DNA from: Haliotis rufescens
Lineage: Eukaryota
Reading direction: 5' to 3'
Assembly: GCF_023055435.1 (NCBI RefSeq)
Contig: NW_025963868.1
Span: 11,656,001 to 11,720,000, forward strand
DNA: 64,000 bases
In this document: positions 8,150 through 39,412 of the stretch, piece by piece
How positions within the stretch are numbered: position 1 is the first letter of the stretch
Layout of the letters: the number at the start of each line of letters is the position of its first letter
The notes under the pieces: generated by a model
What the model was told of the DNA's origin: nothing
The model's input: only the letters and a program-made list of their open reading frames with translations
Databases searched by the model: none
Program-made: the position numbers and the translations under genes

Positions 8150-11100
8150 ATGGGATTTCTCACATACCTGACTACTCTGTTGTGGATAGGACGGATTGTT
8201 GACACACGTAGGTTTCCCTTTGTCATTATACAAAGTATTGAATTATCTATGTACATATATATATTGTGCAATGGTGTATAAAGTGTAAATAGCAATCACA
8301 GTATTTAAAAGTACTCCCTCACCACGTTTCTTTGTGTACGCTGATGGAATTCCAACATGACTGGTGTTGAAGAAAGACAAAGTACGAAAATCTCTACCTG
8401 TTTGCCTGATTTATTCTAATGTATGTTGGAATGTTGCAGGTGGTTTCCCTCTAGAACTCACTCAGTTCCAGTCAGGCGATGATGTCACCTTAGTCTGCAC
8501 CGCAACTAACACCACTATCAAGATTGAGTTTACACAATGGTACATGGATGACGTACGAGTTCTCATGTCAGTGTCTGCAGGGAATGTATGTCTAAAACAC
8601 CCACCTACCAGCACAGGCGATACTTATGCATATCGTTACGACCTATACATATCAACGGATGTCAGTGTAAGCTGTGGTTACCTCCAACACAACATGACAC
8701 TAACTACAACTCAATACCTCCATGCTGGGACTGTGTGGCGGTGTGAGGATCAACGCAAGAGAGTCAGTAACAACCTTACTTCAGGTATGATCTATCTGTT
8801 TCATTTCGTGCGCATATATTCTTTTATTTACATTTACATGTCCTTGTAATCTCACGCATCATGTTGTGACACACTGTACATGTATCAATGCAGATATACC
8901 TCAGTCGGTATGCATGATCAATAACTATATTTACAACACGGACACCCAAAGATACATTAATACTTTTAGAAGTGATGTGAAATGGGATTTAACGTCCCTT
9001 GCATGTTTATTGNNNNNNNNNNNNNNNNNNNNNNNNNNNNNNNNNNNNNNNNNNNNNNNNNNNNNNNNNNNNNNNNNNNNNNNNNNNNNNNNNNNNNNNN
9101 NNNNNNNNNNNNNNNNNNNNNNNNNNNNNNNNNNNNNNNNNNNNNNNNNNNNNNNNNTTGCAAATATACTAGCCCAGACTAATGCAGGTTTCATAGTGCT
9201 AGCCCACAAAGATATCATGCACTACTTTAACATGATTACCCCACTCAGACACATTACGCTCGGAAGCGACAAGTCCTTGTTGTATTCCCTTGACTCAGTG
9301 CACCGGGCAGGGCAACAACAAGTACCATCTTTTCACATTTTTTAGAATTACACGGCCGGAGATCGAACATCCAACCATTAGACCACATTGTTATTGTGTG
9401 TTAGATATTGAGCCAGTAAATGTCATAATTAACTTATATTATTTGTGTCTGCAGACATTCTAGGGACTGCGTATGAGTCAACTCCACCACTGACTGCATC
9501 AGCAACAACGATCGCCACAGACAGAGCTATTCATGGTAGTTGTGCACCAACTAACTAAACTAACGTTTGCATACAGTGTATATCATATTTAGAGAGACTT
9601 TGTATTAACACCAGTTATCATATTTAAACTTATGCCGACATAAGTCATGTACTTGTATACTTATTAAGCTAAAGGTTTGGCAGTACAATGTATATTAGTT
9701 TTAGGAAAAGTCTGGAACATATATAATACAACTATGATTACCCATAGGGTTAGAAAAGACCGAGTTCATGAAAAATGCATGTGTACTAGTGCAAAAGACA
9801 TTGTTTCCGTCCTTCTGATGGCATTGTTGAAGTCATTTAATCCTTTTGATGCTGAAGGTCGGAATAGCGTCACACTGGAAAAGACGCCATAGATGAAGTT
9901 TGTTCAGGCCACTCGACATTTGTGGTTTTCTGAAACTGCGATCCTGCTCAGTGCAGTTTTCTAAACGGGAGATCAAAAGAATTAGGAAGTAATACATCAG
10001 TATGACAACTTTTACAGACACATGATCTAGGACATAATATCAATATGCATTGAGCCTCGTTTATTTGAGTGAGTGAGTGAGTGACTATTGTTTTACGTCG
10101 CTTTTAGCAATGTTGCAGCAATATCACGGTTGGGGACACCAGAAATGGGTTTCACACATTTTATCCAAGTGAGAAATCGAACCCTGTTCTTTGGCGTGAC
10201 GAGCGACCGCTTTAACCACTAAGCTACCCCACCGGCCCAGCATTTATTCAAAGAAACATCATGGTGATATATTTTAGTATGTTATGGCTCTTGATATTGC
10301 AGAATTTATAACAGGTCAACCCTGCTGTATGGAAGTATGTAATATTACACTATACAAGACCTACACAAATATATCACTGCTAAATAATAAATCATGGAAC
10401 AGACACCCATTACTAACGAGTAAGGTGTAAAGCCCATTAGTTTCGCTGCTTATCAATGTGTTTGTTAATATTATATTATTCAATACTTATACTAACAACC
10501 TCTATGCACAGTACAACTCATACATTTGCCAGAGACGGTATATCAGCCCAGTATTTGTTTTCTTATTTTTCTTTTTCAAGTTGTTAATAACGCCATAATC
10601 ATCATTGTTATGGCGGGAGGTGGCGTCGTGATCCTCATCATAAGTGTTCTCTGTGTATGTTTTTTGAGGAGGAGGCGAAAAGAAATTGGAAAAGCTACAC
10701 AAGGTGAACTCATTCTAAAATTGACTCAATATGATTTTTTTATATTTATTTATAGTTACTTCGATTGGCAGTTCCTATTGTTGTCCTTTGCTCGATAATA
10801 ATTTTCTCATGTTTTAATTATAGTGCGTGAGTGAGTTGGGTACAATGCAGCTTTGCACAGTATTCCAGTTGTATTAATGCGAGGCGGTATTCGTAGGTTT
10901 TTTTGCGTCCCATGAGAAGCAACATTGTACAACGAATTGCGGCGCCCTAGATGACAGGACCGCACGTCGAGTTTTACCAAAAAGAAATACCTTTTGTTTC
11001 CAATTCATAAGCCGATATTGCATACAGCCGGAGCTGACTGTAACGCCATTTATACGATCAGTGCTGATTGGATGTGAATTTATTGTTTTATAATCGAGCA

Positions 11101-11503
11101 ACAACGTAGTATTTTGTTCCGCTGCTAACAGTAGTTTCTATTGAGTATATCTAACATATATCTCAATACAAACGAAAAAAAACCGATTGATGTCTTGTGG
11201 CCTTGTATCACAGATCAAATGTATTGATGCAGCTTGCACCCGTGTGTGTAATGTAAAATATGCCTTATGTCACCAATGCTTGATTCTTAAGTTCTAAATT
11301 GTATTTGTGTTTGTGCAGATGTATCACTGGCTGATGTTGACACACCTCAGTACGACACTTTGGCTCACAATGGCAATACAGATCCCTGTTACTCAGAGAT
11401 CAAGAAAGAAACTTCCAGACAGTCCAACATACACACAAACGATGTTTACTACAACACCGTATCCAAAAATGCTGACTACGAAAACCCACCCATGAGAACA
11501 TAG
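8150..11503 (+). CDS. Gene A: single-Ig-domain type I receptor with ITAM-like tail (~263 aa)
   Basis: Exons 8150-8207 (leader MGFLTYLTTLLWIGRIVDT), 8440-8784 (Ig: TLVC..WYMD..VWRC), 9455-9535 (stalk), 10581-10703 (TM), 11319-11503 (tail ...PQYDTLAHNGNTDPCYSEI...VYYNTV..DYENP..*). All introns are GT-AG and phase 1; the total of 792 nt is an open frame. The N gap 9013-9157 lies in intron 2. Confidence 0.85.
9013..9157. other. Assembly gap (N run); second gap at 27173-27328
   Basis: N characters in the sequence. Confidence 1.
10066..10238 (-). mobile_element. tRNA-derived SINE family 1 (gene A intron)
   Basis: Full-length copy: (gagt)n ... gggacaccagaaatggg ... aatcgaaccc ... ctaccccaccg. Confidence 0.85.
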
Positions 11504-14600: not shown

Positions 14601-16346
14601 ATCTAGTTAAATAAATACTACTAGATCTACCATTGAACCGTCATAAAAAAAACTTTATCTTTCTTAAGTTGTTTATTTCAAAATCGCTTCCGAAGCAAAG
14701 CGAATCAATCTACATCATAAAATAATTTATCGACTAGATTCTAGTACCAGTAAGTGTAGCACCAATTAACTTTTTCTAAATGTCATAAAATAACTTACAC
14801 AAATATTGAAAGACATTTTTTTTATAAAAAATATTATTTTTTTTGTCAGCCCGCTCTCTGGTTAGTTGAGGTTTGAGAGGAGAAACTCATACACAACATA
14901 TGGATAGCCTTATGCAAATGACAATTGCGCTGCCAATCAACAGGGAATCTGGGTCACGGGGACCCGCAAAGTTTCACGGATAGAGTGATTTCGCCATGAG
15001 GAGCCCTCGGTCAAGTGTGACTTTGCCAAAACACATTGCTACTGGGCAATGAAAACATGTGATGGAAACGACAAATAACTACTTTCATCACTTGAACATA
15101 TTTTGTACCATTACCAGGGATTTTCCCGATCGTTGCCATCCTGATTCCAGATGAAGCCAAGACGAACACAACGAAAAAAACACTGTTGGAATCACAGATT
15201 ACCGTGTGTATTGTGTGAAATGCTATTCATAAACTGCAAATATGCCGTACACCACAGGATTACATTTGGTGCCGTGATACATAATATGGTGTTTTGTTCA
15301 ACAAAACTACTCTTATTCATCACGACAAACGTATTTCGTTCTCGTCCAGAGAATAGCGCAGGACTAAGTTTTGTGTTGGACTGGAATAAAAACATAAATC
15401 GTGGACATTCCACAGCATCATTTTATGAAGATTTGAAGACGACATAGCAGGTAGGTTTTGAAACCAAACGTTACGCGTTTGTTGAAAAGTGTTGGAATCG
15501 TTTGATGGATATTTATTTCCATTAAAACTTATATCTTGGTTGTGAAACGGCCCACTTGGGTGGGTGTTTACATGACGTTACCCGTTTACTCGTTAACCAA
15601 TGAAGTTTGTATGTTAGCATGACGTCATATTGACCTGTCAGATCACTCATAAAAGTTCCGCCCACTCAGAGTGCGGTAGTTTCTACAGCAAATGCCCGTT
15701 TAACGTCTTTTGGTATCACACGGCCAGGCCCTGTCCATACTTCTTATTCTGAAGCCAATGATTTATTACCATGTTGTGTGTCACAGTACTATTATTACTA
15801 TTAGCTGATTGTTGTCTGTTTATCGCAGATCTCGGCAAACTGCCATGAGGAAATCTGGTTAATTAATCCCGAATGTGTCAGATCTGTTTGCACAATCTGA
15901 ACGTAATTTCAAGCTCAACACAATTATTTTTTTTCTCTCTGTGATGTGACCATATTTCAACAAGTATATTTTATATGATGTTAAGTTTTATCTGAGTGCA
16001 TTATATGCAAGAGCAAATGTACTCATTCCCGAGTCGGATTTAGTTTTTGCAAACACCAACACATCGGAACGTAATTTTGTCCTTGACATCCAAATATGCA
16101 AATATGAGTGGTATGTATTTATCAATGCCTAAATCGAAAAAAACAGCTAAAAGCGAGTGGATGCTGATTGTTGGACTGTTTCCTCCGTTATAAGGATGTA
16201 ATGCACATATAGTGGAGCACTCATGTTTGCTTACGAAGAATGCTTCATGTTGCACAGTGTGTTTAAAATGTGTTGTGACTTACGTCGGGTTATTTCAACA
16301 AAACCTTAAAAAATGTTGATGAGAGGATGTTTGATTTAGGAGAAAC

Positions 16347-19300
16347 ATGGACATCGGGATTCGCCTGATTACTCTGCTGTGCATAGGATGGATTGCGTAC
16401 ACACATAACAGTAGGTTTGAATATTAAATAATGCGAAAGGTTGAACCATTTGGATTTCATTGATGTAATTTAATAGTGATTGTAGCAGTTTATATCCGTT
16501 ATATTTCGTATTTGCATGTTACAGCTGGGTCGGCATTGTAAGTACACGAAGAACGACAAAGAATGTCACTGCATGTTTGTGTTCTGATTGCTTCTCATGC
16601 TGGTTGTATGTTGGAATGTTGCAGGTGGTTTCCCTCTGGAACTCACTCAGTTCAAGTCAGGCGATGATGTCACTTTAGTCTGCACCGATGCTAACACAAC
16701 TTTCAACATAGAGTTTACAAAATGGTACATGGATGACGTACGAGTTCTCACGTCAGTGTTTGCAGGGAATGTCTGTCAAAAACACCCACCCAACAGCCCA
16801 GGCGATACTCATGCATATCGTTACGACCTATACACTTCAACGGATGTCAGTGTAAGCTGTGGTAACACCCAACACAACATGACACTAACGACAACTCACT
16901 ACCTCCACGATGGGACTGTGTGGCGGTGTGAGGATCAACGCAATAGAGTCAGTAACAACCTTACTTCAGGTATGATCTTTTTTTGGCCATGAGCTCACAT
17001 TCCTTTACTTACATCTACGTGTTCTTTTGATCTCACACATCGTGTCAGATAGACGCTCCAACCATCTGACCACAGAGGCGATAAAATAAAATTTATTCTT
17101 CTAGAGCGTCGATATTGAGCTGGTAAATGCCACAATTAATTTATATTATTTATGTATGCAGATATTCAAGGTACTCTAGGTAGTTTTGTATATTACATTT
17201 AGAGAAACAATGAGACCTGTTATGCCATTCACATTAATGCTGGTAAAATCATCTTAACAATCGTAGGTCAGATACAATATCAGATAGTTTTAATAATCCT
17301 CTGTATATTATAGTTTGTACTTTTATATGTAAAATGTTCGAACGTCGTTTCACAATCACACTGAGCATAACTGATGTTGGCTCATCTAAAAGATTTTTCA
17401 AACAATAGTATTGTGTAATTCTATGTCCTCTATGATGGGCTAGCAAATTTCATAATTATTTGTTTTTATTATTTGTGTCGGCAGGCTTTGCAGTGACTAC
17501 CAATAACACAAGATCACAACTGACTGATTCAGCAACAACGTTGGCAAAACTTACAACTATCAAGATAACTACTCCCCTGAGCAACGAAAATCAAGGTAGT
17601 TATGTATTAGTCGTCAAAATTACCTTTGGCTACGATGTGTACGATATTTAGAAACAGTCAGGAATGTATAACACAACCGTATACGGACCCATGATCCAAG
17701 ACATACCCCCTTTTTGCATTGAACGGCATGTATTTGAACAGACGGTATTGTGATAAATTTCGGTGTATCAAAGCTCTTGATATTGCGGTTTTACACGATA
17801 TTTCATGGCTGCAGTTTACTCGAATAGGATACTGTCTTAGCTTAGTTACTGTGAATGAATGAACGATTATGAACAACAAAGTAAAATATAATGTTCTCAC
17901 CTCCAGACAAATAGCATGGAAAAAAACATTGATCATAAACCCATTACTGACGACGTGCTGTTTCACGCCTTCGAGTACTCGGGACAAATTGGATTCACTT
18001 GATTCTAGTGTTATTCGGCCATCATCACAATCAACGGATACGGACATACAGACAACTCCAGAATCTAGTAGTTACATGTAATCTCCGTCTCTGCATACCA
18101 TGCTTAAAACCTAGGTTTTGTACAGTATTGAAACAGAACAGGTAGCTCTAATCTGTAATATACATACATAAAAAATCACAGTCCCTTTTCGAAAAGAAAA
18201 CTTCCCAAATCAACCTAAGTCATTTGTGGTGAAACATTATCAAGTTAAAAACTTCAGGTCATAAATCCTTAACAACCCCAGCATATAGATTGATGTCATC
18301 AAATCCATCTGCGTGTATACAGCATGGTCTCTCCTCTCGCTATTATTGTCTCAGATCATTCAATACTTACACTCATTGCTTATGTACACGGACTCATACC
18401 TGAACCTACATAGACTTATACATGGACCAATTTAACGGCCAGTATATAAGCCCAGTATTTGTTTTCTCCTCAAGATAACACCATATGCATTATATTTTTT
18501 AAAGATCAACATCAACTTCATTGACATCACTAACCATGGCCCAGACACCCAGTATATGTTTTATGTTCAAGATGACACCATGTACATTGCTGCTGGGGCA
18601 GGAGGTGGCATCATGATCCTCATCATAATCGTTATCTGTGTATGTGTTGTTAGAAGGAGAAGAACGGTAAACGTCACGCAAGGTAAACTGCACTTCTGCA
18701 GTCGGAACATATTACTATTATTTGGTATCAGATTCCGATTTGATGTAAAGTGATTTGAAGATCAAACCAGAACATTCAGGACAACGTTAAGCATTTCAGA
18801 TGTAAATATTAAAGTTTCATCAAATATAAAAGCTACAGCTCTCATCTGTCAATTCATTTACTTATCCATCCTTATCATAAAATCGCTTATTTGAGCATAC
18901 ATCAACACATATCGCAAGAGTATTAACAACAGAAATATAATAAATTATGCAGTGAACAATGGTATTGGTCGTCATGTCTGTTCACAGCTATCAGCGATGC
19001 AGACAATGGTGCAGAGCTTTCAGAAAACCCAACTTATGTTAGGTGAGTAGAGTGTCAAGTGCTTCCACTGTATGTCACCTTTGAATTCCGTCACGCAACG
19101 CCCGTATGGGTCGTCTTCAGTATAGAGTTATGTTATTTCAATGTGGTCAACTGTATGTCTTTTCTAGCCTTTGCATTGGATTGTGACGGATACGATCTAA
19201 ACCTTGTGTCATTTTTATTGAGTAAGATTCATAAACACATGCTTTAGATATAGTCAGAACGGAAAATGGACTCTGCTTTCGGCACAGATTTCTTACAATT

Positions 19301-21198
19301 ATGGAAATGGTTTTGTTAGTTTTATTTGCATCTCACAAAACGTACTGTTTACAATGTTAATACTCTTTATATTCAGGAACCATTCACTGTGTAATACAAA
19401 CACCTAACCATGTAATATTGGTTTAACGATTTCCTTTATCATAGGAAAACTTTAATCACAAACGATTTAGTCCAGAAAAGTTTGCGTTATATTCACAATG
19501 AAACACGAAACATTATGGAATACTAGACATGTACTAAACTTTAGTTTGTTGTGAGCTTTCCTGAAGGTTATATTGGCCTACACAATATTGTGTGTGATTC
19601 TGTTCTCTCCAAGCTGTGACAGTGAAACAGCGCCTCAGCTTATGTGTGAACGAGTATCTCTGATTGGAGCTTTTACACAAGTCAATGGGATCAATAGTAT
19701 CATCTCAAATGTGATAAACAAACATTATTCATGAAACTTTTGTATGCCACTTTGCTATGATCACATTTACGTGTAGGTTTCTATGTAGTTATGGTTATTA
19801 TTATTTGCAATAATTTATTCCAGTGTTGAAACGATCAATAATTTAAAACAAAAATCCTTTTCAGAAATCAAGATGAAGCAGCTGACAACAAAGAGCTCTT
19901 AACTAGTAAGTCTTCACAGTTGTGGTGTTCTTCACTTCCTCACATATCTGACTACTGTATTTGAGTGGTGATTATAGTTAGAGTGTTGCCTTCTCGATGA
20001 AGCTGAATAATTTCGGGAAGAATTTAGGGTGATTATTATGTTGTTAGTTGTTGGAATATAAACACCATCATTCCATTTCTAACTGCCGCACCAGGCACGA
20101 CAACCGTACACCAGCCTGCTGTAGTTGGTGCTGTCAACGTTGACGATGTGTATCCTGTACCAGACAAAACACCCAAGCACCAGTCGGCTGTACGTAGTGC
20201 TGTCAACGTTGTCGATCTGTATGCTGTACCAGACAAAACACCCAAGCACCAGTCGGCTGTACGTAGTGCTGTCAACGTTGTCGATCTGTATGCTGTACCA
20301 GACAAAACACCCAAGCACCAGTCGGCTGCACGTGGTGTTGTCAACGATGGTGACATGTATGCCGTCCCGGACAAGAGACCCACACACCAGCCAGCTGTTG
20401 GCGGTGCTGTCAACGTTGATGATCTGTATGCCGTACCGGATATGTCAATGAAAACAAAGAACGGAACATGTAAGTATACACGGAAGTGTGACCGGACTAG
20501 GAGTTATAATGAGTCTCCTTATATGTTTGTCGTAAGAGGCTCTGAAAGGGTTGGATGATTTGGCTCGGTTGATTATTCGACTAACGGCATCGGGTGCTCA
20601 GAATCGGTGGCATGGTTCATGCATTGCATCGTATCCCAATTTCGTAGATCGATGCTTATGATGTCAGTCACTGGGTTGACTGGTCCAACTGGTCCCGGTG
20701 ATTTACAGACATCCGTCACAAAGGTGGAACATTACTGGATGCGCGGTTAATCAACAAACAAACAAAAAAAACTTGGTAGTTAATGTGTCATCGTAGCCGA
20801 ACGACGTGGAACGTTTTTCATAACATTAACCGTTGGTTTGCCTGGTCCAGACTCGACTTTTAAAGGACGATTACTGACTGTGGCGCAAAACAACGTACAT
20901 ACAAAATGTCACATCCTTTTAGGGATTTATGACTGACTGACTGAGTGAGTATGGTTCTAAACCGCTTTTAGCAATATTCCATCAATATCACGGCGGGGGA
21001 CACCATAAATGGGCTTCACACATTGTACCCATGTCGGAAATCGAACCTGGGTCTTCGGCGTGACGAGCGAACGCTTTAACCACTGGGATACCGCCCCCTA
21101 GGGATTTATGACAGCAAGACAATGTTGATGTTTGGACTGAATATATATTGTTGGTTGTTGCAGATAATTCTCGGTCCGAAGCCGACAGTGAAATCTAA
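16347..21198 (+). CDS. Gene B: single-Ig-domain type I receptor with NPxY and 5x YxVP-repeat tail (~384 aa)
   Basis: Exons 16347-16410 (leader MDIGIRLITLLCIGWIAYTHN), 16625-16969 (Ig), 17162-17179 and 17485-17595 (stalk), 18572-18682 (TM), 18988-19042 (ENPTYV), 19865-19905, 20095-20469 (69-bp repeats), 21164-21198 (YNSRSEADSEI*). Splice phases are compatible; 1155 nt open frame. Confidence 0.82.
20095..20445 (+). repeat. Coding 69-bp (23-aa) tandem repeat, 5 units (paralogues 38525-38805 with 4 units and 53588-53800 with 3 units)
   Basis: Unit KTPKHQSAVGGAVNVxDLYAVPD. Exon lengths of 375/306/237 nt differ by exact multiples of 69. Confidence 0.92.
20934..21098 (-). mobile_element. SINE family 1 with 14-bp TSD (last intron of gene B)
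   Basis: TSD tagggatttatgac at 20920-20933 and 21099-21112; empty site in paralogues D (~39290) and E (~54285). Confidence 0.9.
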
Positions 21199-21819
21199 AT
21201 GGAGGAAGTGACGTCAACTTAATCGGTGCAGTCATGGTTCTTGGCGACACAACGCTCACATTTGCCAGACAAACAAATTCAAATGGGGCCCTGCTCCTTT
21301 GGATGTTCTCCTTGTTTGGTATGTCTCAATCCCCCTCCTGTGATTAATCCCGTGTGGAACTTAGACATTATTTCAACGTAAAGAGTGTAACTGTTAAGTT
21401 GATATAAATGTACAGTAAACTGCCTTTATAACAAACACACTTATAAATTACGAACTGACGTAACACATTCACCTTCAACAAATGTGTCGGAATATTTTTT
21501 GCTCAAGTAGGACATTTTGAATTTACATTTTTATGGCTTTATGCTGTTTTAAATTGTTCAAGCTTTATTATAATATATTTAATCTAATAACCTTTTTGAA
21601 TGACACATTTATTATTGTATTATTTTGTTAGCATCTATACTTATTTCAATTGCAACAAATATTTATTTCGTTGTTTCCACTGAACACAGCTGACATGCAT
21701 CAGTGACGCCGGGATTTTCATCTAAAACTAACTTCACTTCAATTAACCTGCCTCAAAATATGTGCAGGCCATTGTGACATGATTAACACGTGATTAACGA
21801 CCAGGTTAACACGTGAATG

Positions 21820-23050: not shown

Positions 23051-25030
23051 AAGTCGTTTCGGTAAAATACACGATTTTTACAAATAATGTCATTTTTTCC
23101 ACTTTTTCTCACCGAATACATTGAGTTGTCCTCCGACATATTTAATTCTTAATTTATATTGATTTTGTCAAGTTATCAAAATGGTGAAAACTTTTTAAGT
23201 TGTATACCTTCTTTTGGACACTAGTTCATATCACATATTTGACGAATATTTGTGTTTTTATTTTTTGCACATTGTCCAAACTTTAATATTGTTAAAGCTT
23301 TTTGCAAGGACATGTTATTGTTAGTCTTGGTTGTCATGTTTTTGACATTTATACTTATTTCAGTGCAAAAAATATATATTTTGGATGTTCTCACTCCGGT
23401 CGTATCGCATAGGTCTGATTTTATAACGCCATTGTATATATTTGGCTACATTATGTGTCAGTGTTTTCAGTCGTATCACAAATGTCTAACTAGCGGAAAA
23501 TAGCGATCAGTTAAAATATTTATGAAAACCGAATATGAATATACCAGGAAAGTCGTTACAGAATATTTCAACAAATTTCAATGGGGCAGCTGATTCATTT
23601 ATGGCAGGGAAATACTACAACAGGGATTTGATAGAGTTTCAATGCGGTTTTCCTCCACCGCGTATCTCGGGCAACTCAAATCAATATTATCTTATTCGTG
23701 TATTGTGTAACATTCTGTCGCTTATCAGCAAGTTATATATTTTGAATTAAAAGATTCGTCGCACAAAGTACCTCACCAAAGGCTGATTGTCACTACAACA
23801 GGAACATTCAAATCATGCGAATAGAATATATGTCAGACATAACGGGGTTGAATATAACAAAATGTTGCTTATTATAAAATATATTTGAACTCCATTGGAT
23901 CATGTTAATAACGAACTGATTGTAGTCTCGTATATACATGTACTTAGGTACAAAACAGCATACTCGGAATTCTTTTTGTCGTTTTTACATAAGTATTCTT
24001 GCTGATGATGTTTATGCAAAGTTATAAATGTACTTTATTACTGCATGGTCCCCTGTATCATGTTTACAATGATTTATGTGTGCAGAAATAACACTTATTT
24101 GATTTTCACAATGTATTGTCCTATTGTTCAATCATTTACATTTCCACTCACAGGTTAGTCGCACAGTCGGTTTCATGTTGTCCTACATGTTGGTCAAGTT
24201 TAAGTGTTTTATTTTGACATGTGGATTTTACTTCCTTATCTGCTTTCGGCATGAAAAAAATATGCCTCGCCTGACGAACTGTGTTCTTTTCTCTCTGAAA
24301 CCTAATAATCAATACTTGTGATTATACATACGTGATTTGCCAAACCATCTAAATACGAACGAATTACACATCATAAATATATCAATAAAAGATAGCATTT
24401 GTACGATGAGAACATTAGCTCGAGGAAATATGACTGTACGCTCGGCCTGCAGCAACCCGACAGTACAAACGTTGAATGTTTTGTCTGTTGCATTACACAA
24501 GTCAGAGGGTGGGAAAAGGAAAAGGAAACAGTGCTTGATACCATACTCAAAGTCCCAAGTCACCGGGAACAACACACAACCAGCCAGGTTACGGTCCATC
24601 CGATCTCCTTTTTAATTAGTTTTTATTTATTTTGTGTTTGTTTGTGTGTTGTTTAACGCCGCACTTTATTCCAGCTGTATGATGGCGGTCTGTAAATAAT
24701 TGAGTCTGGACATGACAATCCAGTGATTGACATCATGAGCATCGATTTACGCAATTGGGATACGATGACATACGTTGGAATGACACAGCAAACGTGCAGG
24801 CTCGCTCGCCTGTTTTTTTCCCGCTCGCCTCGGTTCCACAACTTTCATGTCTTCTGGTTTCATTTCTAAACAGCATTTTTCCAAAAGTGTTGAATGTTTG
24901 AATTTGGCGGTAACTGACCATGTCATTTCAAACAGCCGCCTTTTCTCGAACATATTTGTTCCAGTTAGTTACAGTCTGACTGTTGCAGTTCTTGTCGCCT
25001 CTTGCCTTGATTGACAGGTCCGTATTGCAG

Positions 25031-25218
25031 GTGGTCTCCTCCTATCACTCACTCAGTTCCAGTCAGGCGTACATGTCACCTTAGTCTGCAGCACTACTGA
25101 CACCACTATCTACATGGAGTTTACACAAAGGTATATGGATGACGTACGAGTTCTCAACATCACAGGCGATAGTTATGCAAATAGTTACGACCTTTTCACT
25201 TCAACGGATATCAGTGTA
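25031..25218 (+). pseudogene. Truncated Ig-exon remnant of the same receptor family
   Basis: After ttgcag it reads GLLLSLTQFQSGVHVTLVCSTTDTTIYMEFTQRYMDDVRVLNITGDSYANSYDLFTSTDISV then TGA TGA. The core Trp is replaced by Arg, there is an internal deletion, and the F-strand Cys, donor site and leader exon are missing. Confidence 0.85.
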
Positions 25219-26271: not shown

Positions 26272-29200
26272 ATGGACACCTGGATTCATCTGATTACACT
26301 ACTGTGTATAGGATGGATTGTTTACACAAATAACAGTAGGTTTCAATTTCTAATCATGAAGGATAGAACCAATGGGATGTCGTAGGTGTAATTTAATAGT
26401 GATTGTACAACTTTATATCCGATCTGTGTCGTGTGTGCATGTTACAGTTATTTGGGTATTGTAAGTACATGAAGAACGACGAAGAATGTCACTTCATGTT
26501 TGTGTTCTGATTGCTTCTCATGCTGGTTGTATTTTGGAATGTTACAGGTGGTCTCCCTCTAGAACTCACTCAGTTCCAGTCAGGAGGTAATATCACCTTA
26601 GTCTGCAGTTCCATCAACACCACTATCAGCACGTCCTTCAGATATTGGTATATGGATGAGGTGCGAGTTCTCACGTCAGTGTTTGTAGGTCATGATCATG
26701 GTTGTAACAGAAACCCACCCAATAATGATACTGCATATCGTTACGACCTATTCACATCAAATGATGGTAGTGTAAGCTGTGGTGGCAACCAGCACAACAT
26801 GACACTAACTACAACTCAATACATCCAAGCTGGGGCAGTGTGGCGGTGTGATGATCAACGCCATAGAGTCAGTAACAACCTTACGTTGGGTATGATCTTT
26901 TTGTTATGCGCTCATACTCCTTTGTTTACATCAACGTGTCCTTTCTGATCTCATACATCATGCTATGACACATTGTACAAGAACGGATGCAGATGTAACT
27001 GATTCATGAAATATATACCTGGGAACCGTACGTAAATGTTCAAGGACTATGAACACGCCATCTACAAATTAAGAACTTTATAAATCGGTCACCAACAGAT
27101 ACATACGGAATTAGCACTATCGGAGAGTGAGGTGAAATTTGTGACGTCGCGTCCATCATTTCTCCACTTATANNNNNNNNNNNNNNNNNNNNNNNNNNNN
27201 NNNNNNNNNNNNNNNNNNNNNNNNNNNNNNNNNNNNNNNNNNNNNNNNNNNNNNNNNNNNNNNNNNNNNNNNNNNNNNNNNNNNNNNNNNNNNNNNNNNN
27301 NNNNNNNNNNNNNNNNNNNNNNNNNNNNTCAGGACACATGCCTGTTTCAAAGTGATAACTCAGATAGCATGGCGCAGTTTAAATGCATTCCCCATTCAGA
27401 AACAGTAGACTAACTCCGAACAGACAAAACCGTGTATTTCCCCAAGGAGAATACTATGCCTTGTCGTATGACCTGGCCTGGTGTCAAAGCCACTGATCTT
27501 CCCTTCTCAGGATAAACGCTCTAACCGGTTGATCATGGAGGCGGTCAATATAAAATCGCTTGTTCATGTGTATCGATATTAAGCTAGTAAATGTCACAAC
27601 TAATATATATTATTTATGTATGCAGTCATTCCTGGGACTACTGATAAATCAACTACACCACTGACTGATTCAGCAACAACGATCACCACAGACAGCGATA
27701 CTCATGGTAGATTTGTATCAGTTAAACTAACGATGTATTATATATTTAGGGATACATTGTATTGATACCAGTGATGTCATTCACACTAATGCCAGCGAAA
27801 GCCATTTTATCTGTTTTAATAATCCTCTGTATGTCATTAACCTAATATATGTTTCAGCTATCCACAAATTGAGTAACTTTGTATGTAAAATGTTCGAACG
27901 CCCGTTCCTAAACACACTAAAATGAACATAATGTGGCTCGTCTAACGGAATATTCAAACTATAGAAGTGTGTTATTTTATGTCCTCTGTGGTGAGCGAGC
28001 AAATTTCATAATTATCTGTATATATTATTTATGTCGTCAGGCTTTCATGGGACTACTTATAAGAGAAGTTCACAGCTGACAACGTTGGCAAATCTTACAA
28101 CTATCAAGTTAACTTCTGCCCCGAGCAACGATAATCAAGGTAGTTGTGTACTAGTCGTCATACTAACCTTTGTGTACGATATATATGATATTTAGAAACA
28201 TTCATGAATATATAACAATACCTATACTGACCTAGGGCATAGCAAGACATAGCAACAATGTGCACTGAATGTACATTTAAAACAAACAGTACTGTGATAG
28301 CTCTCTAGACATTGCGGTTTTTACATGATATTGTGATACATCAACCCCATTATTTCGGTGCGGCATTTTATTAAACTTCTCATATTGACTTAGCTTTGTC
28401 ATTGTAAACGAATGAAGTATTATAAATAACAGAGTAAGCGATATTGTCGTCAGGCCACGATAAGTGGCACGGAAAAAAACATGGACCATACACCCATTAC
28501 TAACGACGTGCGTATTAACGTCATCGGGTAACCGAAGAAAAGTTGGATCAGCTGAATTCTAATATTAGTTGGCCATGATGGAAATTAAAGGTTACTGATA
28601 TTCAGAAACTTAAGAATGTAGTACTCATATATAATCTCAATCTCTGCTAAGTATGCCTAAAACCTAGTTTTGTACAGTTCTGCGTAAAAGGTTACTCGTA
28701 TCTATCAGGTTACGCGTTACATAACTTCATGTTCGTTATTCAGTTATGGCTTGATGAGACTCATACGTGGTACGAGTTGAAAGCACTAGCCAATTAAAAC
28801 AGTGTTTAATCTTACTCCACTTATTCTAATTTTACTATATTGTGCCTGAGACAAGAACTTTACTGTGCTTTATATGTATCCCATTTCCCTTTCAAAACCG
28901 TCCCAATCAAACTAAATTATATGGTGAAACATTATCAAGTAAATACTAGTAACTTCGTATCATTGCTCCTCATAGACCGAAGTCACCAATTCTATCTGCG
29001 TGTATACAGCATGGACTCTCTTTATGTAAAAGTTATGTTGTCTTAGATTATTCAGTACTTATACTCATTGCTTATATATATACGAACTCATAGATGTACT
29101 TATATAAACTTTTCCATGTGCCAAGTTCAAGGACAGTATACTTACTATCCCAGTATTTGTTTTCTCTTCAAGATGATGCCATGTATATCGCTGCGGGGAC

Positions 29201-31043
29201 AGGTGGAGGAATCTTCATCCTCATTATAATCGTTATCTGTGTATGTGTTGTAAGGACGAGAAGAAAGGGAAACGTCACACAAGGTAAACTACACCTCTTT
29301 GATGACGGTCAGAACAAATTAGAATTATTTGGTATCGGATTCTAATTTGATGTTAAGTGATTTGAAGATGAAACCAGAACATTCATGACAGCGTTATAAA
29401 GCATTCATGCTATATTTCTAGATAATCCGTTTTTCACATTAAAGTTTTCAAAGATCATGGACCAGACGCCCAGTGGCCCAGTATAAGTTTTATGTTCAAG
29501 ATGACACCATGTACATCGCTGCTGGGGCAAGGGTTGGCATCATGATCCTCATCGTAATCGTATCTGTGTAGGTGTTGTGAGGAGACTAAATGTAAACGTC
29601 AAACAAGGTAATCTACACCACTTGTAAGGAGGGTAGCAATATTTTACAATTATATGTATTCAGAAACTGATTTAATATCATGTGATTTGTAGGTCGTACT
29701 TGTACCTTTTGCCGTTACTGATTTAAAAAACGGATTTTAATACATGTGTCATAATATTGTCAATATAAAGTGATTCCACATCTCACCTACATGTCTACCA
29801 TAAATCTTTTTGAAAGCATTATTAGTGCCTTAAATGCTGTGACCCTGATCAATCAGCTTCGAAGCAAGAGCAGTGTGACGATCTTTGAAATCTTGGTAGA
29901 AAGAGCAATATACCTCAAAAGTTGTGAAATGAAGACACCAAGGGCTCTTGCTGATGGAATACTGCTCCACACAAAGTGAACGTTGAGCACTGCAAAGTTG
30001 AAGTCATCCCTATTTTGGGCATTTGCTTCCATGTTTGACAAATTGACCTGAACCTCTGATGATAGATAAGTAACGCTATCTATGGTCACCATCTTTATAA
30101 ACAAGCCTCATGGAACAAGGCATGAAGTTTTCCTTCACGTTTCCCAAATGGTATTGTGGTGTACAAAGTTGAAAAATCAAATGTTTTGACAGAATTGAAG
30201 TTGGTTCTTTTCAGAGTTTGTAAAAAAGTCAAGCAAATCATATATTTTTTTGAGAATCCACATGGTAATAATTCCATTTGTCTCAAATATTTTTTGTTAA
30301 AATATAAAGTTCTTTCTTGATTGTATGAATGATTATGGTTAATCGTAGAGACAGGGATTTTGTGGTACATTTGCTGAACCCAGCAATATATCTCTCTTTG
30401 TACGGATTGTTATAGAGCTTTGGAATCCAGTACAAAAGAGGAATGGATATGTCTTCAGGTTTTACAGTCAAGTCAAAAGTTGATGGTACTGATTCATTGA
30501 TTCAGCAGATTTCATCATCAATTAACATACTGCCCTCACATGTGGCGTTATTTGATATCATTATGTCATTTATACCAAATTCTTTAATCAAACAATTAAT
30601 GTAGTGATGCTTACGCAAAATGGTTATGTTATTTGAGGCCTTGTCAGTGAGAACAATCTAAAACTTTTCAAGAAGGGCAGCCAAACATTGGATGACAGCT
30701 GGTTATGACAGATCATCTCAATACAAATAATAAACAATATTAATGCTGAGGAGCTTTGTATCACAAATAAACTGTTGTGAAGCATCGTGTGTCAGTGTGT
30801 AACGTAAAACATGACTCGTGTCTACAACACTCCTTATTTGTATCTGTGTTTTGTACAGATGTATCACTGGCTGGGGTTGACGCACCTCAATACGACACTT
30901 TGGCTCACAATGGCAATACAGATCCCTGTTACTCCGAGATCAAGAAGGAAGCCTCCAGACACTCCAGCATAAATGCAAACTGTGTTTACTACAACACTGT
31001 GCCCGAGAATGCTGACTACGAAAATCCACAAATGATAACTTAG
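26272..31043 (+). CDS. Gene C: single-Ig-domain type I receptor with D-type ectodomain/TM and A-type ITAM-like tail (~293 aa)
   Basis: Exons 26272-26335 (leader), 26548-26889 (Ig), 27626-27706 and 28041-28139 (stalk), 29173-29283 (TM), 30859-31043 (DVSLAGVDAPQYDTLAHNGNTDPCYSEI...YYNTV..DYENPQMIT*). 882 nt open frame. The N gap 27173-27328 lies in intron 2. Confidence 0.82.
29501..29607 (+). pseudogene. Frameshifted second TM exon (B-type) inside a gene C intron
   Basis: ttatgttcaag|ATGACACCATGTACATCGCTGCTGGGGCAAGGGTTGGCATCATGATCCTC... matches the B TM exon (18572-18682). It is 107 nt with a frameshift and in-frame TAG; the donor caag|gtaatc is retained. Confidence 0.8.
29850..30690 (-). mobile_element. 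Penelope-like retroelement RT remnant in a gene C intron
   Basis: LYWIPKLYNNPYKERYIAG..KCTTKSLS; VKTFDFSTLYTTIP; RDDFNF...SSIPSARALGVFISQLLRY. These resemble Penelope-like RT motifs and are frameshifted. Confidence 0.75.
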
Positions 31044-33190: not shown

Positions 33191-34182
33191 ATGGACACAA
33201 GGATTCGCCTGATTACTCTGCTGTGTATAGGATGGTTTACGTACACAAATAACAGTAGGTTTGAATTTCTAATCATGCTGTGTATAGGATGGTTTTCGTA
33301 CACAAATAACAGTAGGTTTGAATTTCTAATCACCCGAAGGATGGAAGCATCAGGATGTCGTAGGTGTAATTTAATAGTGATTGTACCACTTTATATCCTA
33401 TCTGTTTCGTGTTTGCATGTTACAGTTATTTGGGTATTGTAAGTACATAAAGAACGACAAAGAATGCCATTGCATGTTTGTGTTCTGATTGCTTCTCATG
33501 CTGGTTGTATCTTGGAATGTTGTAGGTGGTCTCCCTCTAGAACTCACTCAGTTCCAGTCAGGAGGTAATATCACCTTAGTCTGCAGTTCCATCAACACCA
33601 CTATCAACACGTCCTTCAGATATTGGTATATGGATGAGGTGCGAGTTCTCACGTCAGTGTTTGTAGGTCATGATCATGGTTGTAACAGAAACTCACCCAA
33701 TAATGATACTGCATATCGTTACGACCTATTCACATCAAATGATGGTAGTGTAAGCTGTGGTGACAACCAGCACAACATGACACTAACTACAACTCAATAC
33801 ATCCAAGCTGAGACTGTGTGGCGGTGTGAGGATCAACGCAATAGAGTCAGTAACAACCTTACGTTGGGTATGATCTTTTTGTTATGCGCTCATACTCCTT
33901 TGTTTACATCAACGTGTCCTTTCTGATCCCATACATCATGCTATGACACATTGTGCAAGAACGGATGCAGATGTAACTGATTCATGAAATATATACCTGG
34001 GAACCATACGTAAATGTTCAAGGACTATGAACACGCCATCTACAAATTAAGAACTCTATAAATCGGTCACCCAAAGATACATACGGTATTAGCACTATCG
34101 GAGAGTAAGGTGAAATTGTTACGTCGCGTCCATCATTACTCCACTTATATAGCGACGTCCATGTACGTTTGTGTGAGTGTGT

Positions 34183-34233
<51 letters not shown>

Positions 34234-37200
34234 TGTGCGTGTGTTTGTGGTTGCTTGTATTGGTCAGGACACATGCCTGTTTCAAAGTGATACCTCAGAC
34301 AGCGAGCCGCAGTTTTAATGCATTCCCCATTCAGAAACAGTAGACTAACTCCGAACAGACAAAACCGTGTTTTTCCCCAAGGAGAATACTATGCCTCGTC
34401 GTATGTCCTGGCCTGGTGTCAAAGCCACCGATTTCCCCCTCTCAGGACAAACGCTCTAACCGGTTGACCATGGAGGCGGTCAATATAAAATCGCTTGTTC
34501 ATGTGTATCGATATTAAGCTAGTAAATGTCACAAATAATATATATTATTTATGTATGCAGTCATTCCTGGGACTACTGATAAATCAACTACACCACTGAC
34601 TGATTCAGCAACAACGATCACCACAGACAGCGATACTCATGGTAGATTTGTATCAGTTAAACTAATGATGTATTATATATTTAGAGATACATTGTATTGA
34701 TACCAGTTATGTCATTCACACTAATGCCAGCGAAAGCCATTTTATCTGTTTTAATAATCCTCTGTATGCCATTAACCTAATATATGTTTCAGCTATCCAC
34801 AAATTTAGTAACTTTGTAAGTCAAATGTTCGAACGCCCGTTCCTAAACACACTAAATTGAACATGATGTGGCTCGTCTATCGGAATATTCAAACTATAGA
34901 AGTGTGTTATTTTATGTCCCCTGTGGTGAGCGAGCAAATTTCATATTTATCTGTATATATTATTTATGTCGTCAGGCTTTCACAAAACTACTTATAAGAG
35001 AAGTTCACAGCTGACGACGTTGGCAAATCTTACAACTATCAAGATAACTCCTGCCCCGCGCAACGATAATCAAGGTAGGTGTGTACTAGTTGTCATACTA
35101 ACCCTTGGGTAACCCGTGATATTTAGAAACATTCACGAATATATTACAAAACCATATACTGACCCAGGACATAGCAAGACATAGCAACAATGTGCACTGA
35201 ATGTACATTTAAAACAAACAGTACTGTGATAGCTCTCTAGACATTGCGGTTTTTACATGATATTGTGATACATCAACCCCATTATTTCGGTGCGGCATTT
35301 TATTAAACTTCTCATATTGACTTAGCTTTGTCATTGTAAACGAATGAAGTATTATAAATAACAGAGTAAGCGATATTGTCGTCAGGCCACGATAAGTGGC
35401 ACGGAAAAAAACATGGACCATACACCCATTACTAACGACGTGCGTATTAACGTCATCGGGTAACCGAAGAAAAGTTGGATCCACTGAATCCTAATGTTAG
35501 TCGGCCATGATGGCAATTATAGGCTACGGATATAAAGAAACTTTAGAATGTAGTAGTCATATGTGATCTCCATCTCTGCTAAGTATGCCTAAAACCTAGT
35601 TTTGTACAGTTCTACATAAAAGGTTACTCGTATCTATCGGGTTACGCGTTACACACCTTTATGTTCGTTATTCAGTTATGGCCTGATCGATGAGACTCAT
35701 CTTTGTACGAGCTGAAAGCGCTAGCCAATTAAAAGTGTGTTTAATCTTAATCCACTTATTCCAATTTTACTATATTGTGCCTCAGAGTTAGAACTTTACT
35801 GTGCTTTATATATACATTTCCCTTTCGAAAACTTCCCAATCAAACTAAATTGGTGAAATATTATCAACTAAATACCAGTAACTTCGTATCATTGCTTCTC
35901 ATAGACCGACGTCACCAACTTTATCTGCGTGTAAACAGCATGGACTCTCTTCATGTAAAAGTTATGTTGTCTTAGATTTTTCAGTACTTATACTCATTGC
36001 TTATATATGCGAACTCATAAATGTACTTATATAGACTTATCCATGTGCCAAGATCAAGGACAGTATACTTACTTGCCTAGTATTTGTTTTCTCTTCCAGA
36101 TGACACAATGTATATCGCTGCTGGGACAGGTGGAGGAATCGTCATCCTCATTATAATCGTTATCTGTGTATGTGTTGTAAGGACGAGAAGAAAGGGAAAC
36201 GTCACAGAAGGTAAACACTACACCACTTTGATGACGGTCAGAACAAATTACTATTATTTGATATCAGATTATAATTTGATGTTAAGTGATTTGAAGATGA
36301 AACCAGAACATTCATGACAGCGTTATAAAGCATTTCAGATGTAAAGATTAAATGTCAGTTTCATAAAACATAATAATATACAGCTCTCATCTGTCAAATC
36401 ATTTCCTTATCCCTCCTTGTAATAAAATAGCTTTTTTGAATATACATCAACACATATCACAAGAGTAATAAGAACAGAAAAATGATAAATGAACAAAGTT
36501 ATTGGTTGTCATGTCTGTTCACAGCTTTCAGCGATGCAGACAATGATGCAGAGGTCTCAGAAAACCCACTTTATGTTACGTGAGTAGAGTGCCAAGTATT
36601 TCCACTGTATACCACCTTTGAATTTCATCATCACGCAATGCCCGGGACCGCCTCCGTGGTCTAGTGGTAGAGCGTCGCTATGTAAGTGCAATAATCTTGG
36701 ACGCGACGTTAAACCCACTTTCACCTCACCTCACCTCACCTCACCTCACTTCACCTCACCTCACCTCACCTCACATCACATCACATCACCTCACCTCACC
36801 TCACCTCACCTCACCTCACCTCACCTCACATCACCTCACCTCACCTCACCTCACCTCACCTCACCTCACCTCACCTCACCTCACCACAATGCCCGTATGA
36901 GTCGTCATAGGTATATTGTTGTTAAAGGTATCGGAAATTGTTCAATAACCACCAAATAGACAGTTCCCTTCCACTGATTTACCCACCTGAACTAGAAATA
37001 AAGAAGACAAATGGAACCACTTCGTCTGTTTCATATGTAGAACTATGCACAAAGATTCAGAGGGATAAAGCACTAGACTGCATGACAAGTGGAATGACTT
37101 CACCTTTCCAACAGTCAACTTTCCCTTTATGTCAAACAGTATTCCAGTAGGTACAGCTAATGGTGTCTACATTTCACAACTTTTGAAGAACATTCGAGCA

Positions 37201-39412
37201 TGCACTTTCAATCAAGATTTCGAAAAGAGCGCAATACATTCCTTGCTAAGAAGCTGTTTGGTCAAGGTTACAACATTAGAGGAAACATTCCTGGCCTCAG
37301 AAAAGCTTTAAAAAGGTTAACTGTAGACACGTGGGGAACATTGAGGCTTCAGTCCCTATTCAGACTTGTACCACATGTTCCCGTGGGTTTTTTTCATGTG
37401 ATTATTTGACTTGTGTTTGCATGTGTTTTTGACGGGTGCCGCTGATGGGGCGAACACCTGGCATAACCACTATTTAATAGTGATTCATAAACACATGCTC
37501 ATGATATAGTCCGAATCAAACAATCGACTCTGTTTTTCGCGAAGATATGGAAAGGGTTTTGTCGCATTTATGCAGTACATAGTACGTAAATTATTTGTTT
37601 TCATCATAAAACTCTCGAAGATGTGGGTGACCTTGTCGCCTTCATTTAAATGTATTCATTAATATAATTAACACACACAACAACCGTCGCATCATCAACC
37701 CTTATCACGGGTAATTCATCGTTCAAATATTTTCTTCATAATTGTTCTTTTATAATGATAATGCAAGTGTTTGTTTTTTTTAAAAAACGCACATTTTTGT
37801 ATCTGCAGGTAGTTCTAAAATATTATCAAATTTGTATTGTATTAATATGCGTGATAGTTGTTTGTATGTTGTTGGAGGACAATGGACTATAAATAGACAC
37901 ATTAGATCTTGATGCTGCGTAAAGGCGACCACGCTTGTCGTAAGAGGCGACTAACGGGATCGGGTGGTCAGGCTCGCTCATCGAACCCAATTGATCGGAT
38001 CGATGCCGATGATATTAAGAACTGGATTGCCTGGTCCATACTGGATTATTTACAGACTGCCGTCATATAGCTGGGATATTGCTGAGTGTGGCGTTAAACA
38101 ACACACCAACCAACCAGTGACACTGCTGGTAACGCCAATCACCTTTAGGGATACGATGACACAAGTCGACAGATCATTGGTATCGCCTCAAATGTGAAAT
38201 TTTTTTATTATTCATGAAAATGTTGAAACTCATTCCTGCAATTTTTTCCCAGTGTTGAAACGAGCAATAACTTAAAAACAATATGATATTTTTTTTCAGA
38301 TACCAAGTTGAACCTGTTGACAACAAAGTACACTTCAATGGTAAGTCTTTTCTATTGTGGTTTTCTTCACTTCATCTGACTATTGTATTCAAATTGTGAT
38401 TATAGTTTGAGTGTTGCCTTCTACATTAAGCTTAAAAATTTCAGGAAGAATATCTAGGGAGAATAATATGATGTTACTTGTTAAAATATGAACACCATAA
38501 TTATATATTCAACTGCCGTACCAGACAATGCACCCGAACACATACTTGCTCTTGGCGGCGCTGTCGACGTTGGTGATCTGAATGACGTACGAGACAAAAC
38601 ACCCAAGCACCAGTCGGCTGTAGGTGGTGCTATCAACGTTGATGATCTGTATGCCGTCCCGGACAAGACACCCAAACACCAGCTAGCTGTGGGCGGTGCT
38701 GTCAACGATGGTGACAAGTACGCCGTCCCGGACAAGACACCCAAACACCAGCCAGCTGAAGGCGGTGCTGTGAACATTGGTGATCTGTATGCCGTACCGG
38801 ATATGCCAATGAAAACAAAGAACGGAACGTGTAAGTATACACGGAAGTGTGATTGACCGGACAACGGGTTAGAATATGTCTCCTTATCCATGTTTGTCGT
38901 AAGTGGCTCTAAATGGGCCGGGTGCTCTGGCTCGGTGACGTGGTTGATTAATCAACGAACGGCATCGGGTGGTTAGAATCGGCGACTTGGTCCATGCATG
39001 TCATTGGATCCGAATGTTTTAGATGCTCATGAAATCAGTCACTGTGTTGTCTGGTCCATAATCGATGATTTACAGACCCCATCAAAAAGCTGTAATATTC
39101 GCGGTTAAACAGCAAACAGCAAACAAACAAACTTGGTACATAGTGTGTCATCTTTGCCCAACGACGTAGAACATTTACCATAACAGTAACCGTCAGTTTG
39201 TCTAGTCCAGACTCGACTATTTAAAAGATGTCATCGGGAATATTTAACTGAAGCGTAAAACAACTTACCTACAAAATGTAACATCCCTTGAGGGATTTAT
39301 GACAGAAAGAAAATGTTGATGTTTGGATGGAATATGTGTGGATGACATAAACACATTGGTTGTTGCAGATAGTACTTGGTCCGAAGCTGACAATGAGTAC
39401 AGTGAAATCTAA
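33191..39412 (+). CDS. Gene D: single-Ig-domain type I receptor with NPxY, 4 repeat units and NEYSEI tail (~380 aa)
   Basis: Exons 33191-33254 (alternative donor after 33311), 33526-33867 (Ig), 34561-34641, 34976-35074 (stalk), 36100-36210 (TM), 36525-36579 (ENPLYV), 38300-38340, 38525-38830 (repeats), 39369-39412 (YSTWSEADNEYSEI*). 1143 nt open frame. Confidence 0.85.
34170..34225. repeat. (TG)n microsatellite in gene D intron 2
   Basis: Directly visible; the paralogous position in gene C is the N gap. Confidence 0.95.
36645..36886 (+). mobile_element. Short, internally deleted tRNA-head SINE with (CACCT)n tail (paralogue ~51789-51940)
   Basis: ggaccgcctccgtggtctagtggtagagcg head, long (CACCT)n, TSD caatgcccg; empty site in gene B (~19095). 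Confidence 0.7.
36950..37330 (+). mobile_element. Penelope-like RT C-terminal remnant (duplicate ~51995-52380)
   Basis: IYPPELEIKKT..SVSYVEL; DFTFPTVNFPFMSNSIPVGTANGVYISQLLKNIRAC. Confidence 0.7.
37920..38115 (+). mobile_element. SINE-like repeat family 3 (other copies ~6085-6270, 7115-7185 -, 20520-20770, 24630-24775 -, 38890-39130, 47182-47352, 52960-53172, 53880-54126)
   Basis: gtcgtaagaggcgactaacgggatcgggtggtcaggctcgct ... actggattgtctggtccagactcg ... atagctggaatattgctgagtgcggcgttaaacaac(aaac)n recurs many times in the window. Confidence 0.75.

Follow-up and report, generated by a model that had tools for sequence, protein, structure and literature searches.

Array-tailed and ITAM-tailed receptor genes at the locus

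The window (the whole stretch of DNA analysed, 64,000 nucleotides of a Haliotis rufescens contig designated C90) and its flanks carry, in this order, the genes Z (minus strand), Y, A, B, C, D, E, F and G, which belong to a family with a common plan: a signal peptide, then a single Ig-fold domain of V type, a Thr-rich stalk, a transmembrane (TM) segment and a tail (Table 1). Genes with a tandem array in the tail (B, D, E and G) are interspersed with ITAM-tailed genes (A, C and F). The gene C model is letter for letter the RefSeq protein XP_048254008.1 (Haliotis rufescens). The use of the TM exon of gene A is uncertain, as RefSeq P0006 ends before that exon.

Table 1. Coordinates of genes, exons and repeats (numbers without a prefix are window positions; a slash marks a splice site)
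Feature	Position	Strand	Remarks
Gene Z (L012, L013)	C90:11636152-11645589	-	Ectodomain of neighbour-Y type, B-type tail; all exons found open
Gene Z array	C90:11636152-11636897	-	11 units, motif Tyr to Phe in all
Gene Y last exon	2757-3141		Same Ig family (RefSeq XP_048254005/6); tail short and basic, one juxtamembrane Tyr
Gene A	8440-11502	+	Short tail with ITAM pattern; Ig exon shares 91.6% of nt with B
Gene B exon 1, sequence-inferred signal peptide	16347-16410	+	Exon also in RefSeq P0002, P0007, P0023
Gene B Ig-fold domain exon	16625-16969	+	C19, W33, C101 plus extra C50/C78
Gene B Thr/Ser-rich stalk exon	17485-17595	+	Possible preceding 18-nt exon at 17162-17179
Gene B TM exon	18572-18682	+	
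Gene B NPTY tail exon	18988-19042	+	NPLY is the D/E/G version; Z has lost the Tyr
Gene B 41-nt tail exon	19865-19905	+	Precedes the array
Gene B array exon	20095-20469	+	375 nt, phase 1-1, bounded by CAG/GC and AT/GTAAGT
Gene B 69-bp tandem array (TRF)	20109-20437		4.8 copies, 86% matches, 0% indels, score 441
SINE-like high-copy element	20930-21092		Further copies elsewhere; heavily covered in all four runs mapped
Gene B last coding exon	21164-21198	+	Without the 9 nt giving NEYSE(I/V) in D/E/G
Broken Ig-exon copy	25025-25218		With stops; between B and C
Gene C	26272-31042	+	Short tail with ITAM pattern; Ig exon shares 97.7% of nt with D
Degenerate second TM exon	29477-29618		Behind that of gene C; another behind that of F
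Gene D, whole model	33191-39412	+	380 aa
57-bp tandem duplication	33219-33332		Donor region of gene D exon 1
Gene D 69-bp array (TRF)	38514-38801		4.2 copies, no indels
Gene D array exon	38525-38830	+	4 units: LNDVRD first, then 3 YAVP
Gene D last coding exon	39369-39412	+	Ends NEYSEI
Gene E, whole model	47898-54406	+	355 aa
Gene E exon ending ACT T/	53356-53396	+	Its final T opens the junction codon TAC (YNTP)
Gene E 69-bp array (TRF)	53577-53797		3.2 copies, no indels
Gene E array exon	53588-53824	+	3 YAVP units; starts AC
Gene E last coding exon	54363-54406	+	Ends NEYSEV
Broken Ig-exon copy	C90:11720589-11721055		With stops; before F
Second receptor cluster (L014, L015, L017)	C268:1540000-1569000		Related genes R1, R2, R3

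According to the gene models, the array exon of gene B is open and continuous in frame with the upstream exons, and it encodes five units of 69 bp (23 aa) in the cytoplasmic tail, the first reading YPVP and the following four YAVP. The units lie head to tail within one exon, their length is a multiple of three and the frame stays open, as expected of a coding repeat; six-frame translation of the window gives 11 YAVP, ten of them inside the array exons of B, D and E. An earlier note on this DNA had described a single in-frame exon of 69-bp units with five copies in B, four in D and three in E, and TRF and the gene models confirmed this. Its term YAVP repeats fits units 2-5 of gene B, but not unit 1. 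The note was also right that one unit of D (the first) had lost its Tyr, and the extra YNTP that it had read at the T/AC junction of E was reproduced as a modelled splice. Within the array exons there are five YxxP sites in B, three in D, three in E and two in G.

The tails of B, D, E and G contain NPxY and the array, and all but B also end in NEYSE(I/V); because the 3' exon of gene B lacks the nine nucleotides in question, the terminal ITIM-like Tyr is missing from B. Thus gene B has the most YxxP sites among the four, yet no ITIM-like terminus. The ITAM pattern used, Yxx[IL]x6-9Yxx[IL], was taken from PMC9546547. It is present with a 9-residue spacer in the tails of A, C and F and of R1 and R2 of the second cluster, and the short tails of A, C and F also carry YYNT and YENP.

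None of five exons matched a Pfam family above the cut-off; among the Ig families of Pfam none reached the gathering score with the four Ig exons, Ig_3 appearing below threshold in two of them (E 0.03 and 0.07). An AF2 model of the gene B Ig domain, computed from a 20-row alignment, had a pLDDT of 91 and a pTM of 0.86 (single-sequence folding gave a pLDDT of only 39.9). Foldseek returned 68 matches at E<=0.001, the matches listed being V domains, and antibody, TCR and CD8 V domains led both fold searches (best Z 10.8 for VIA, rmsd 2.8, 96 residues aligned). Judged from the model, the ectodomain is predicted to be an Ig superfamily V-type fold with a C-W-C core. Atlas matches to the Ig domain were unnamed clusters (scores 0.93-0.94), two of the top three being mostly molluscan, and the atlas search with the tail gave none at >=0.9. 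About a dozen clear relatives were found in a library of 1.8 billion proteins; ten of 18 library matches were looked up, all of them uncharacterised or automatically named Haliotis proteins, and at least four weak matches were unrelated or matched only as generic Ig.

The Ig exons of the F/G pair are 95.0% identical in nucleotide sequence, and a tree of the ectodomains follows neighbours (A+B, C+D+G+P0023) and not tail type, the tail types being intermixed. With small counts and non-independent pairs, the pN/pS of the Ig exon was above 1 in seven of ten pairs among C-G and 0.54-0.84 in 11 pairs involving A or B, and that of the TM exon was 0.05-0.49 across all 15 pairs. The clustering of genes that have nearly the same ectodomain but differ in their tails suggests that this is likely a paired-receptor family. 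Fourteen further weak matches to the Ig exon of B (C90 at 12.9-13.4, 19.8-19.9 and 22.0-22.1 Mb; C157 at 7.12-7.24 Mb) are likely to represent more clusters of it. A different reading would make this a non-immune family for adhesion or for neural or epithelial recognition, with the array as a membrane-anchored, p130Cas-like substrate domain driving actin remodelling. YxxP arrays together with Crk do form adhesion and migration modules (PMC5043372), but in its tandem paired layout, fast Ig exon and ITAM-tailed partners the family resembles clusters involved in immunity and allorecognition (PMC9546547, PMC12582321), and we regard such a role as rather improbable.

Gain, loss and conservation of the repeat units

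When the units are sorted into classes, B reads alpha-beta-beta-gamma-omega, D alpha-beta-gamma-omega, E alpha-gamma-omega and G alpha-beta-omega. Relative to D, E thus lacks beta, G lacks gamma, and in B beta is perfectly duplicated: units 2 and 3 are identical in 69 of 69 nucleotides, so that this gain is recent. The simplest account of the length changes that we infer from these sequences is gain and loss of whole units through unequal crossover. The expression copy-number-tunable, used in the earlier note, fits only to the extent that paralogs differ by whole units; the length differences seen are those between paralogs and between species.

The units at the array edge are decayed (YPVP in B1, NDVR in D1 and G1), whereas all 11 internal units of B, D, E and G retain D-x-Y-A-V-P-D despite variable third positions. 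The frame was kept in 44 of the 44 units examined, one 9-nt deletion included. In nine distinct full-length units of the four genes (internal and last units, the four first units being left out), the motif codons had seven synonymous and two nonsynonymous changes (24% synonymous expected, p=0.0009), against eight and 16 in the spacer codons of the same units. Adding the first units, in which the motif decays, weakened the signal to 7:10 for the motif (p=0.09) and 18:35 for the whole unit (p=0.12). The pN/pS of the units, likewise from small counts and non-independent pairs, was 0.35 in the coding frame and 1.03 and 1.57 in the remaining sense frames.

These counts bear on the view that the array is a minisatellite drifting neutrally in a disordered tail, in which one terminal YAVP (plus the NPxY and the last-exon Tyr) matters and the extra units are passengers. 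Decay at the array ends would agree with it, as would the abundance of minisatellites in this genome, many of them open in several frames and some Tyr-bearing (L055, L058, L069), with no evident genes. An open repeat frame alone is therefore little proof, and the case for a coding array rests on splice phase, position after the TM exon and the cross-species model described below. In the search, the matches at C24, C79, C445, C46, C583 and C90:16.5 Mb were rejected as unrelated minisatellites with several frames open (8 of 36 loci inspected). The retention of the motif in the internal units and the unbroken frame speak against passenger units, and we give neutral drift a low probability.

Gene Z, which in addition to its motif Tyr has lost the NPxY Tyr and the last exon, also speaks for drift. 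The units of its array are alpha-derived (85-88% identical to E1), and one TAT-to-TTT change in an alpha-type unit followed by amplification would explain the whole array; selection for Phe need not be invoked. This 11-fold expansion of a Phe unit shows that an array can expand without a docking site. The changes in the Z array (7:13, p=0.27) and in the R3 array of the second cluster (3:13, p=0.74) are compatible with neutrality. The H. cracherodii counterpart of Z has five Phe units, and none of its 181 tail residues is Tyr, although the number five could stem from an internal acceptor and not reflect the genomic count. By its sequence, Z is a candidate decoy or signalling-null receptor.

In the second cluster the cysteines of strands B and F are absent from the Ig-like domain, which keeps the extra cysteine pair. 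The R3 array has 18 units, 17 of them with Tyr, and its consensus is YAKP, the last unit reading YAVP. R1 and R2 contain 2 and 9 copies, respectively, of a 60-bp YYNT unit, both in ITAM-pattern tails; with YxxP units amplified in the array tails, it follows that both tail types amplify motifs. Together with the all-Phe paralog, the R3 array and this amplification in an ITAM-type tail lie beyond the window to which the earlier note was confined, and they are stronger elements of the case. Frameshifted 69-bp MYAKL arrays were seen downstream of the R1 and R2 stops. The distant family proteins P0012 and P0014 end in single-copy DLYAKP/DMYAKP, from which it appears that the motif is likely older than the arrays.

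Acceptor sites and transcript evidence

The array-exon acceptor of D, E, G and Z falls within a degenerate repeat, its AG being part of the codons for Val-Pro-Asp. Candidate in-frame acceptors of the form GTACCAG/AC recur inside the array of B at +69, +138 and +207 and inside that of E at +69, and related in-frame sites were found within the Z array; in the last exon of R3 the candidate acceptors lead straight to a stop. For H. cracherodii Z there are two RefSeq isoforms (P0001 and P0010), which differ in the acceptor within the array, the second being out of frame. The recurring internal acceptors and the Z isoforms make it possible that valency varies by splicing. The frameshifted Phe-array isoform P0010 (XP_071095273.1) translates into a repeat containing PYQT and stretches of hydrophobic residues, and its frame is also open for 108 codons across the B array.

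The cross-species model is the independently modelled H. cracherodii protein XP_071095265.1 (P0023, 380 aa), whose junctions are those of the gene D model and which has four units with the same dead first unit. Since the order of its unit classes differs from that of D and the protein resembles G in places, it is of D/G type and not a proven one-to-one orthologue of D.

Evidence from reads was limited to runs whose RNA nature is presumed. In run X12, guessed to be RNA, contigs cover exon bins far above most intron bins, some running into introns; one contig fits the B array with 13 differences, whereas D, E and G differ by 27-30. Last-exon variants in runs X12 and X15 were of D/E/G type. Among the joints listed for four presumed RNA runs mapped over 15300-21500, none was an exon-exon joint of gene B, these mappings being swamped by the SINE at 20.5-21.1 kb. 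A search of sequencing runs gave no RNA run among those listed, the stretch being present in six of 20 with shares of 0.21-0.32. Homologue searches returned no H. rufescens protein for B, D, E or G, and the same searches also missed the RefSeq protein of gene C.

A graded reading, in line with the coding VNTR acting as a signalling rheostat that the earlier note had inferred, is that unit number, set by genotype and possibly by the in-frame internal acceptors, would be selected to adjust signalling strength. YxxP sites span 0 (Z), 2 (G), 3 (D; E plus the junction YNTP), 5 (B) and 17 (R3), the ITAM-type tail has been amplified as well (2 versus 9 YYNT units), the unit gained in B is recent, the acceptor 7-mer recurs in frame (three times in B, once in E, with related sites in Z), and the acceptor inside the array differs between the two Z isoforms. 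Against this, the sole annotated internal acceptor shifts the frame, gene D and the H. cracherodii D/G-type protein both have four units, and the long arrays (Z, 11 units; R3, 18 units) have no excess of synonymous change and look neutral. Moreover, the affinity of CagA changes less than 3-fold from two to five copies (PMC4623810). Graded selection is unlikely in our judgement. The boldest form of the idea would be that a molluscan paired Ig family sets valency by in-exon motif amplification in both tail types (0-17 YxxP; 1-9 YYNT), including an all-Phe null receptor that two abalone species have retained, and that with an in-frame acceptor in each repeat a single gene might give rise to tails that differ in valency; we consider it doubtful.

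Candidate docking function and comparison with known systems

The array motifs can be ruled out as ITIMs: the pattern [ILVS]xYxx[ILV] had no matches in the four array exons (B, D, E and G), and the motifs deviate from it at two positions, +3 (Pro) and -2. The earlier note, which had denied them canonical ITIM status on the grounds of Asp at -2, was thus correct, and a second position fails too. YxxPxD, the pattern of p120RasGAP/Dok-type sites (Asp at +5), was likewise rejected, with no matches in the same exons. As to the terminal Tyr, H. cracherodii P0023 ends in SEYSEI and fits the ITIM pattern, whereas D, E and G have Asn at -2; A and C each fit the pattern once (VYYNTV).

On balance we favour the interpretation that the array is a minisatellite coding for part of the tail of a single-Ig receptor, that its YxxP units likely form a multivalent phosphotyrosine docking platform, probably for Crk-type SH2 domains, and that the receptors likely constitute a paired family. 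Ligand binding would cluster the receptor, a Src- or Abl-type kinase would phosphorylate the disordered tail, SH2 adaptors would bind the YxxP units, and a PTB protein would bind the NPxY, which we take to be a PTB-protein site. In D, E and G the added terminal ITIM-like site would oppose or modulate the ITAM-tailed A, C and F. The presence of at least two sites would probably outweigh their exact count, giving a switch between none (Z) and several with only a minor difference between three and five, and copy number would most likely drift through unequal crossover inside a tolerated range.

Docking of SH2 domains on repeated YxxP, which the earlier note had invoked, has a true precedent: the Crk SH2 domain binds pYxxP from choanoflagellates to mammals, and repeats of choanoflagellate TM proteins bind it as EM-pYDVP and DM-pYDVP peptides (PMC5043372). 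The YxxP ligands reported as tested there have Asp at +1, and the abalone units have Ala. For the EPIYA-C segment of CagA, KD values of 24,100, 208, 123, 78 and 40 nM are given for 1, 2, 3, 5 and 8 copies, which corresponds to about 100-fold from one to two copies and less than 2-fold per step thereafter (PMC4623810). The analogy with CagA tuning drawn in that note thus speaks against a graded dial in the copy-number range of B, D and E. For single-SH2 adaptors the copy-number curve could differ from that of CagA.

The Ala at +1 also recalls Csk-binding EPIYA segments (PMC3593179). By analogy with CagA EPIYA-A/B or Pragmin, the units may recruit Csk and not Crk, and B, D, E and G would then be inhibitors of Src-family kinases. 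The pairing with ITAM tails would suit an opposing role, and the distant tails P0012, P0013 and P0021 carry YSKV, YAQV and YAEV beside YAKP; position +3 of the array is, however, Pro and not Val, and we think recruitment of Csk quite unlikely.

To our knowledge, there are few descriptions of signalling by molluscan immune receptors; abalones are a farmed group that in some areas is threatened by disease. Related ectodomains with a natural valency series (0, 2, 3, 5 and 17 YxxP sites) and a built-in Tyr-to-Phe control would allow a direct test, in an invertebrate, of switch-like versus dial-like behaviour of SH2 site number; if unit number is neutral, the family is still a clean example of motif gain in receptor tails. 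Judged from titles and abstract starts, no description of the present family was found in the open literature. Invertebrate Ig clusters with tyrosine tails (PMC9546547, PMC12582321) and membrane proteins with YxxP arrays (PMC5043372) are already known, and it is the combination of an Ig ectodomain with an in-exon YxxP array, and the all-Phe paralog, that appear to be new.

Multiple YxxP, as seen in B, D, E and G, are also a feature of p130Cas/BCAR1, which has 6-25 of them; there they dock Crk and several sites are required, but this is a cytosolic adaptor with SH3 and FAT-like domains (PMC5043372), neither of which occurs in the abalone models. Helicobacter CagA EPIYA-C shares the variable tandem Tyr-Ala motif in a disordered tail (PMC4623810, PMC3593179); unlike the abalone proteins, CagA is a bacterial effector that binds the tandem-SH2 protein SHP2, and its effect is mostly a 1-to-2 switch (PMC4623810). 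Closer in architecture are the choanoflagellate YxxP TM proteins such as Salpingoeca PTSG_05573, which are single-pass with many cytosolic YxxP, share the acidic-hydrophobic context (DM-pYDVP versus DMYAVP) and, in common with the abalone models, lack SH3 and FAT domains. They differ in Asp versus Ala at +1, and the account cited describes no Ig ectodomain or ITAM partner for them (PMC5043372), so that this is a likeness without demonstrated homology. The RM2 tail of Monosiga RTKB2, with six disordered Tyr repeats that are phosphorylated and bind SH2 domains, is similar as a set of receptor-tail repeats, but RTKB2 is a receptor kinase phosphorylating its own tail (PMC3584944), and the abalone proteins have no kinase.

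With regard to gene organization, Hydractinia Alr (PMC9546547) and Botryllus FcoR (PMC12582321) are, like the abalone genes, tandem divergent Ig receptors with alternative tyrosine tails. Theirs are of ITIM, ITAM or hemITAM type with a function shown genetically, and the cited accounts do not mention in-exon YxxP amplification (PMC9546547, PMC12582321). The vertebrate paired receptors CD300A/C and CEACAM1/3 likewise have clustered genes and near-identical V-type ectodomains with opposing tails, their inhibitory members carrying canonical ITIM/ITSM, unlike the abalone arrays (PMC12447643, PMC5112662). We regard the likeness to these pairs as convergent, and the abalone family would add a mollusc case to the repeated independent origins of paired Ig receptors.
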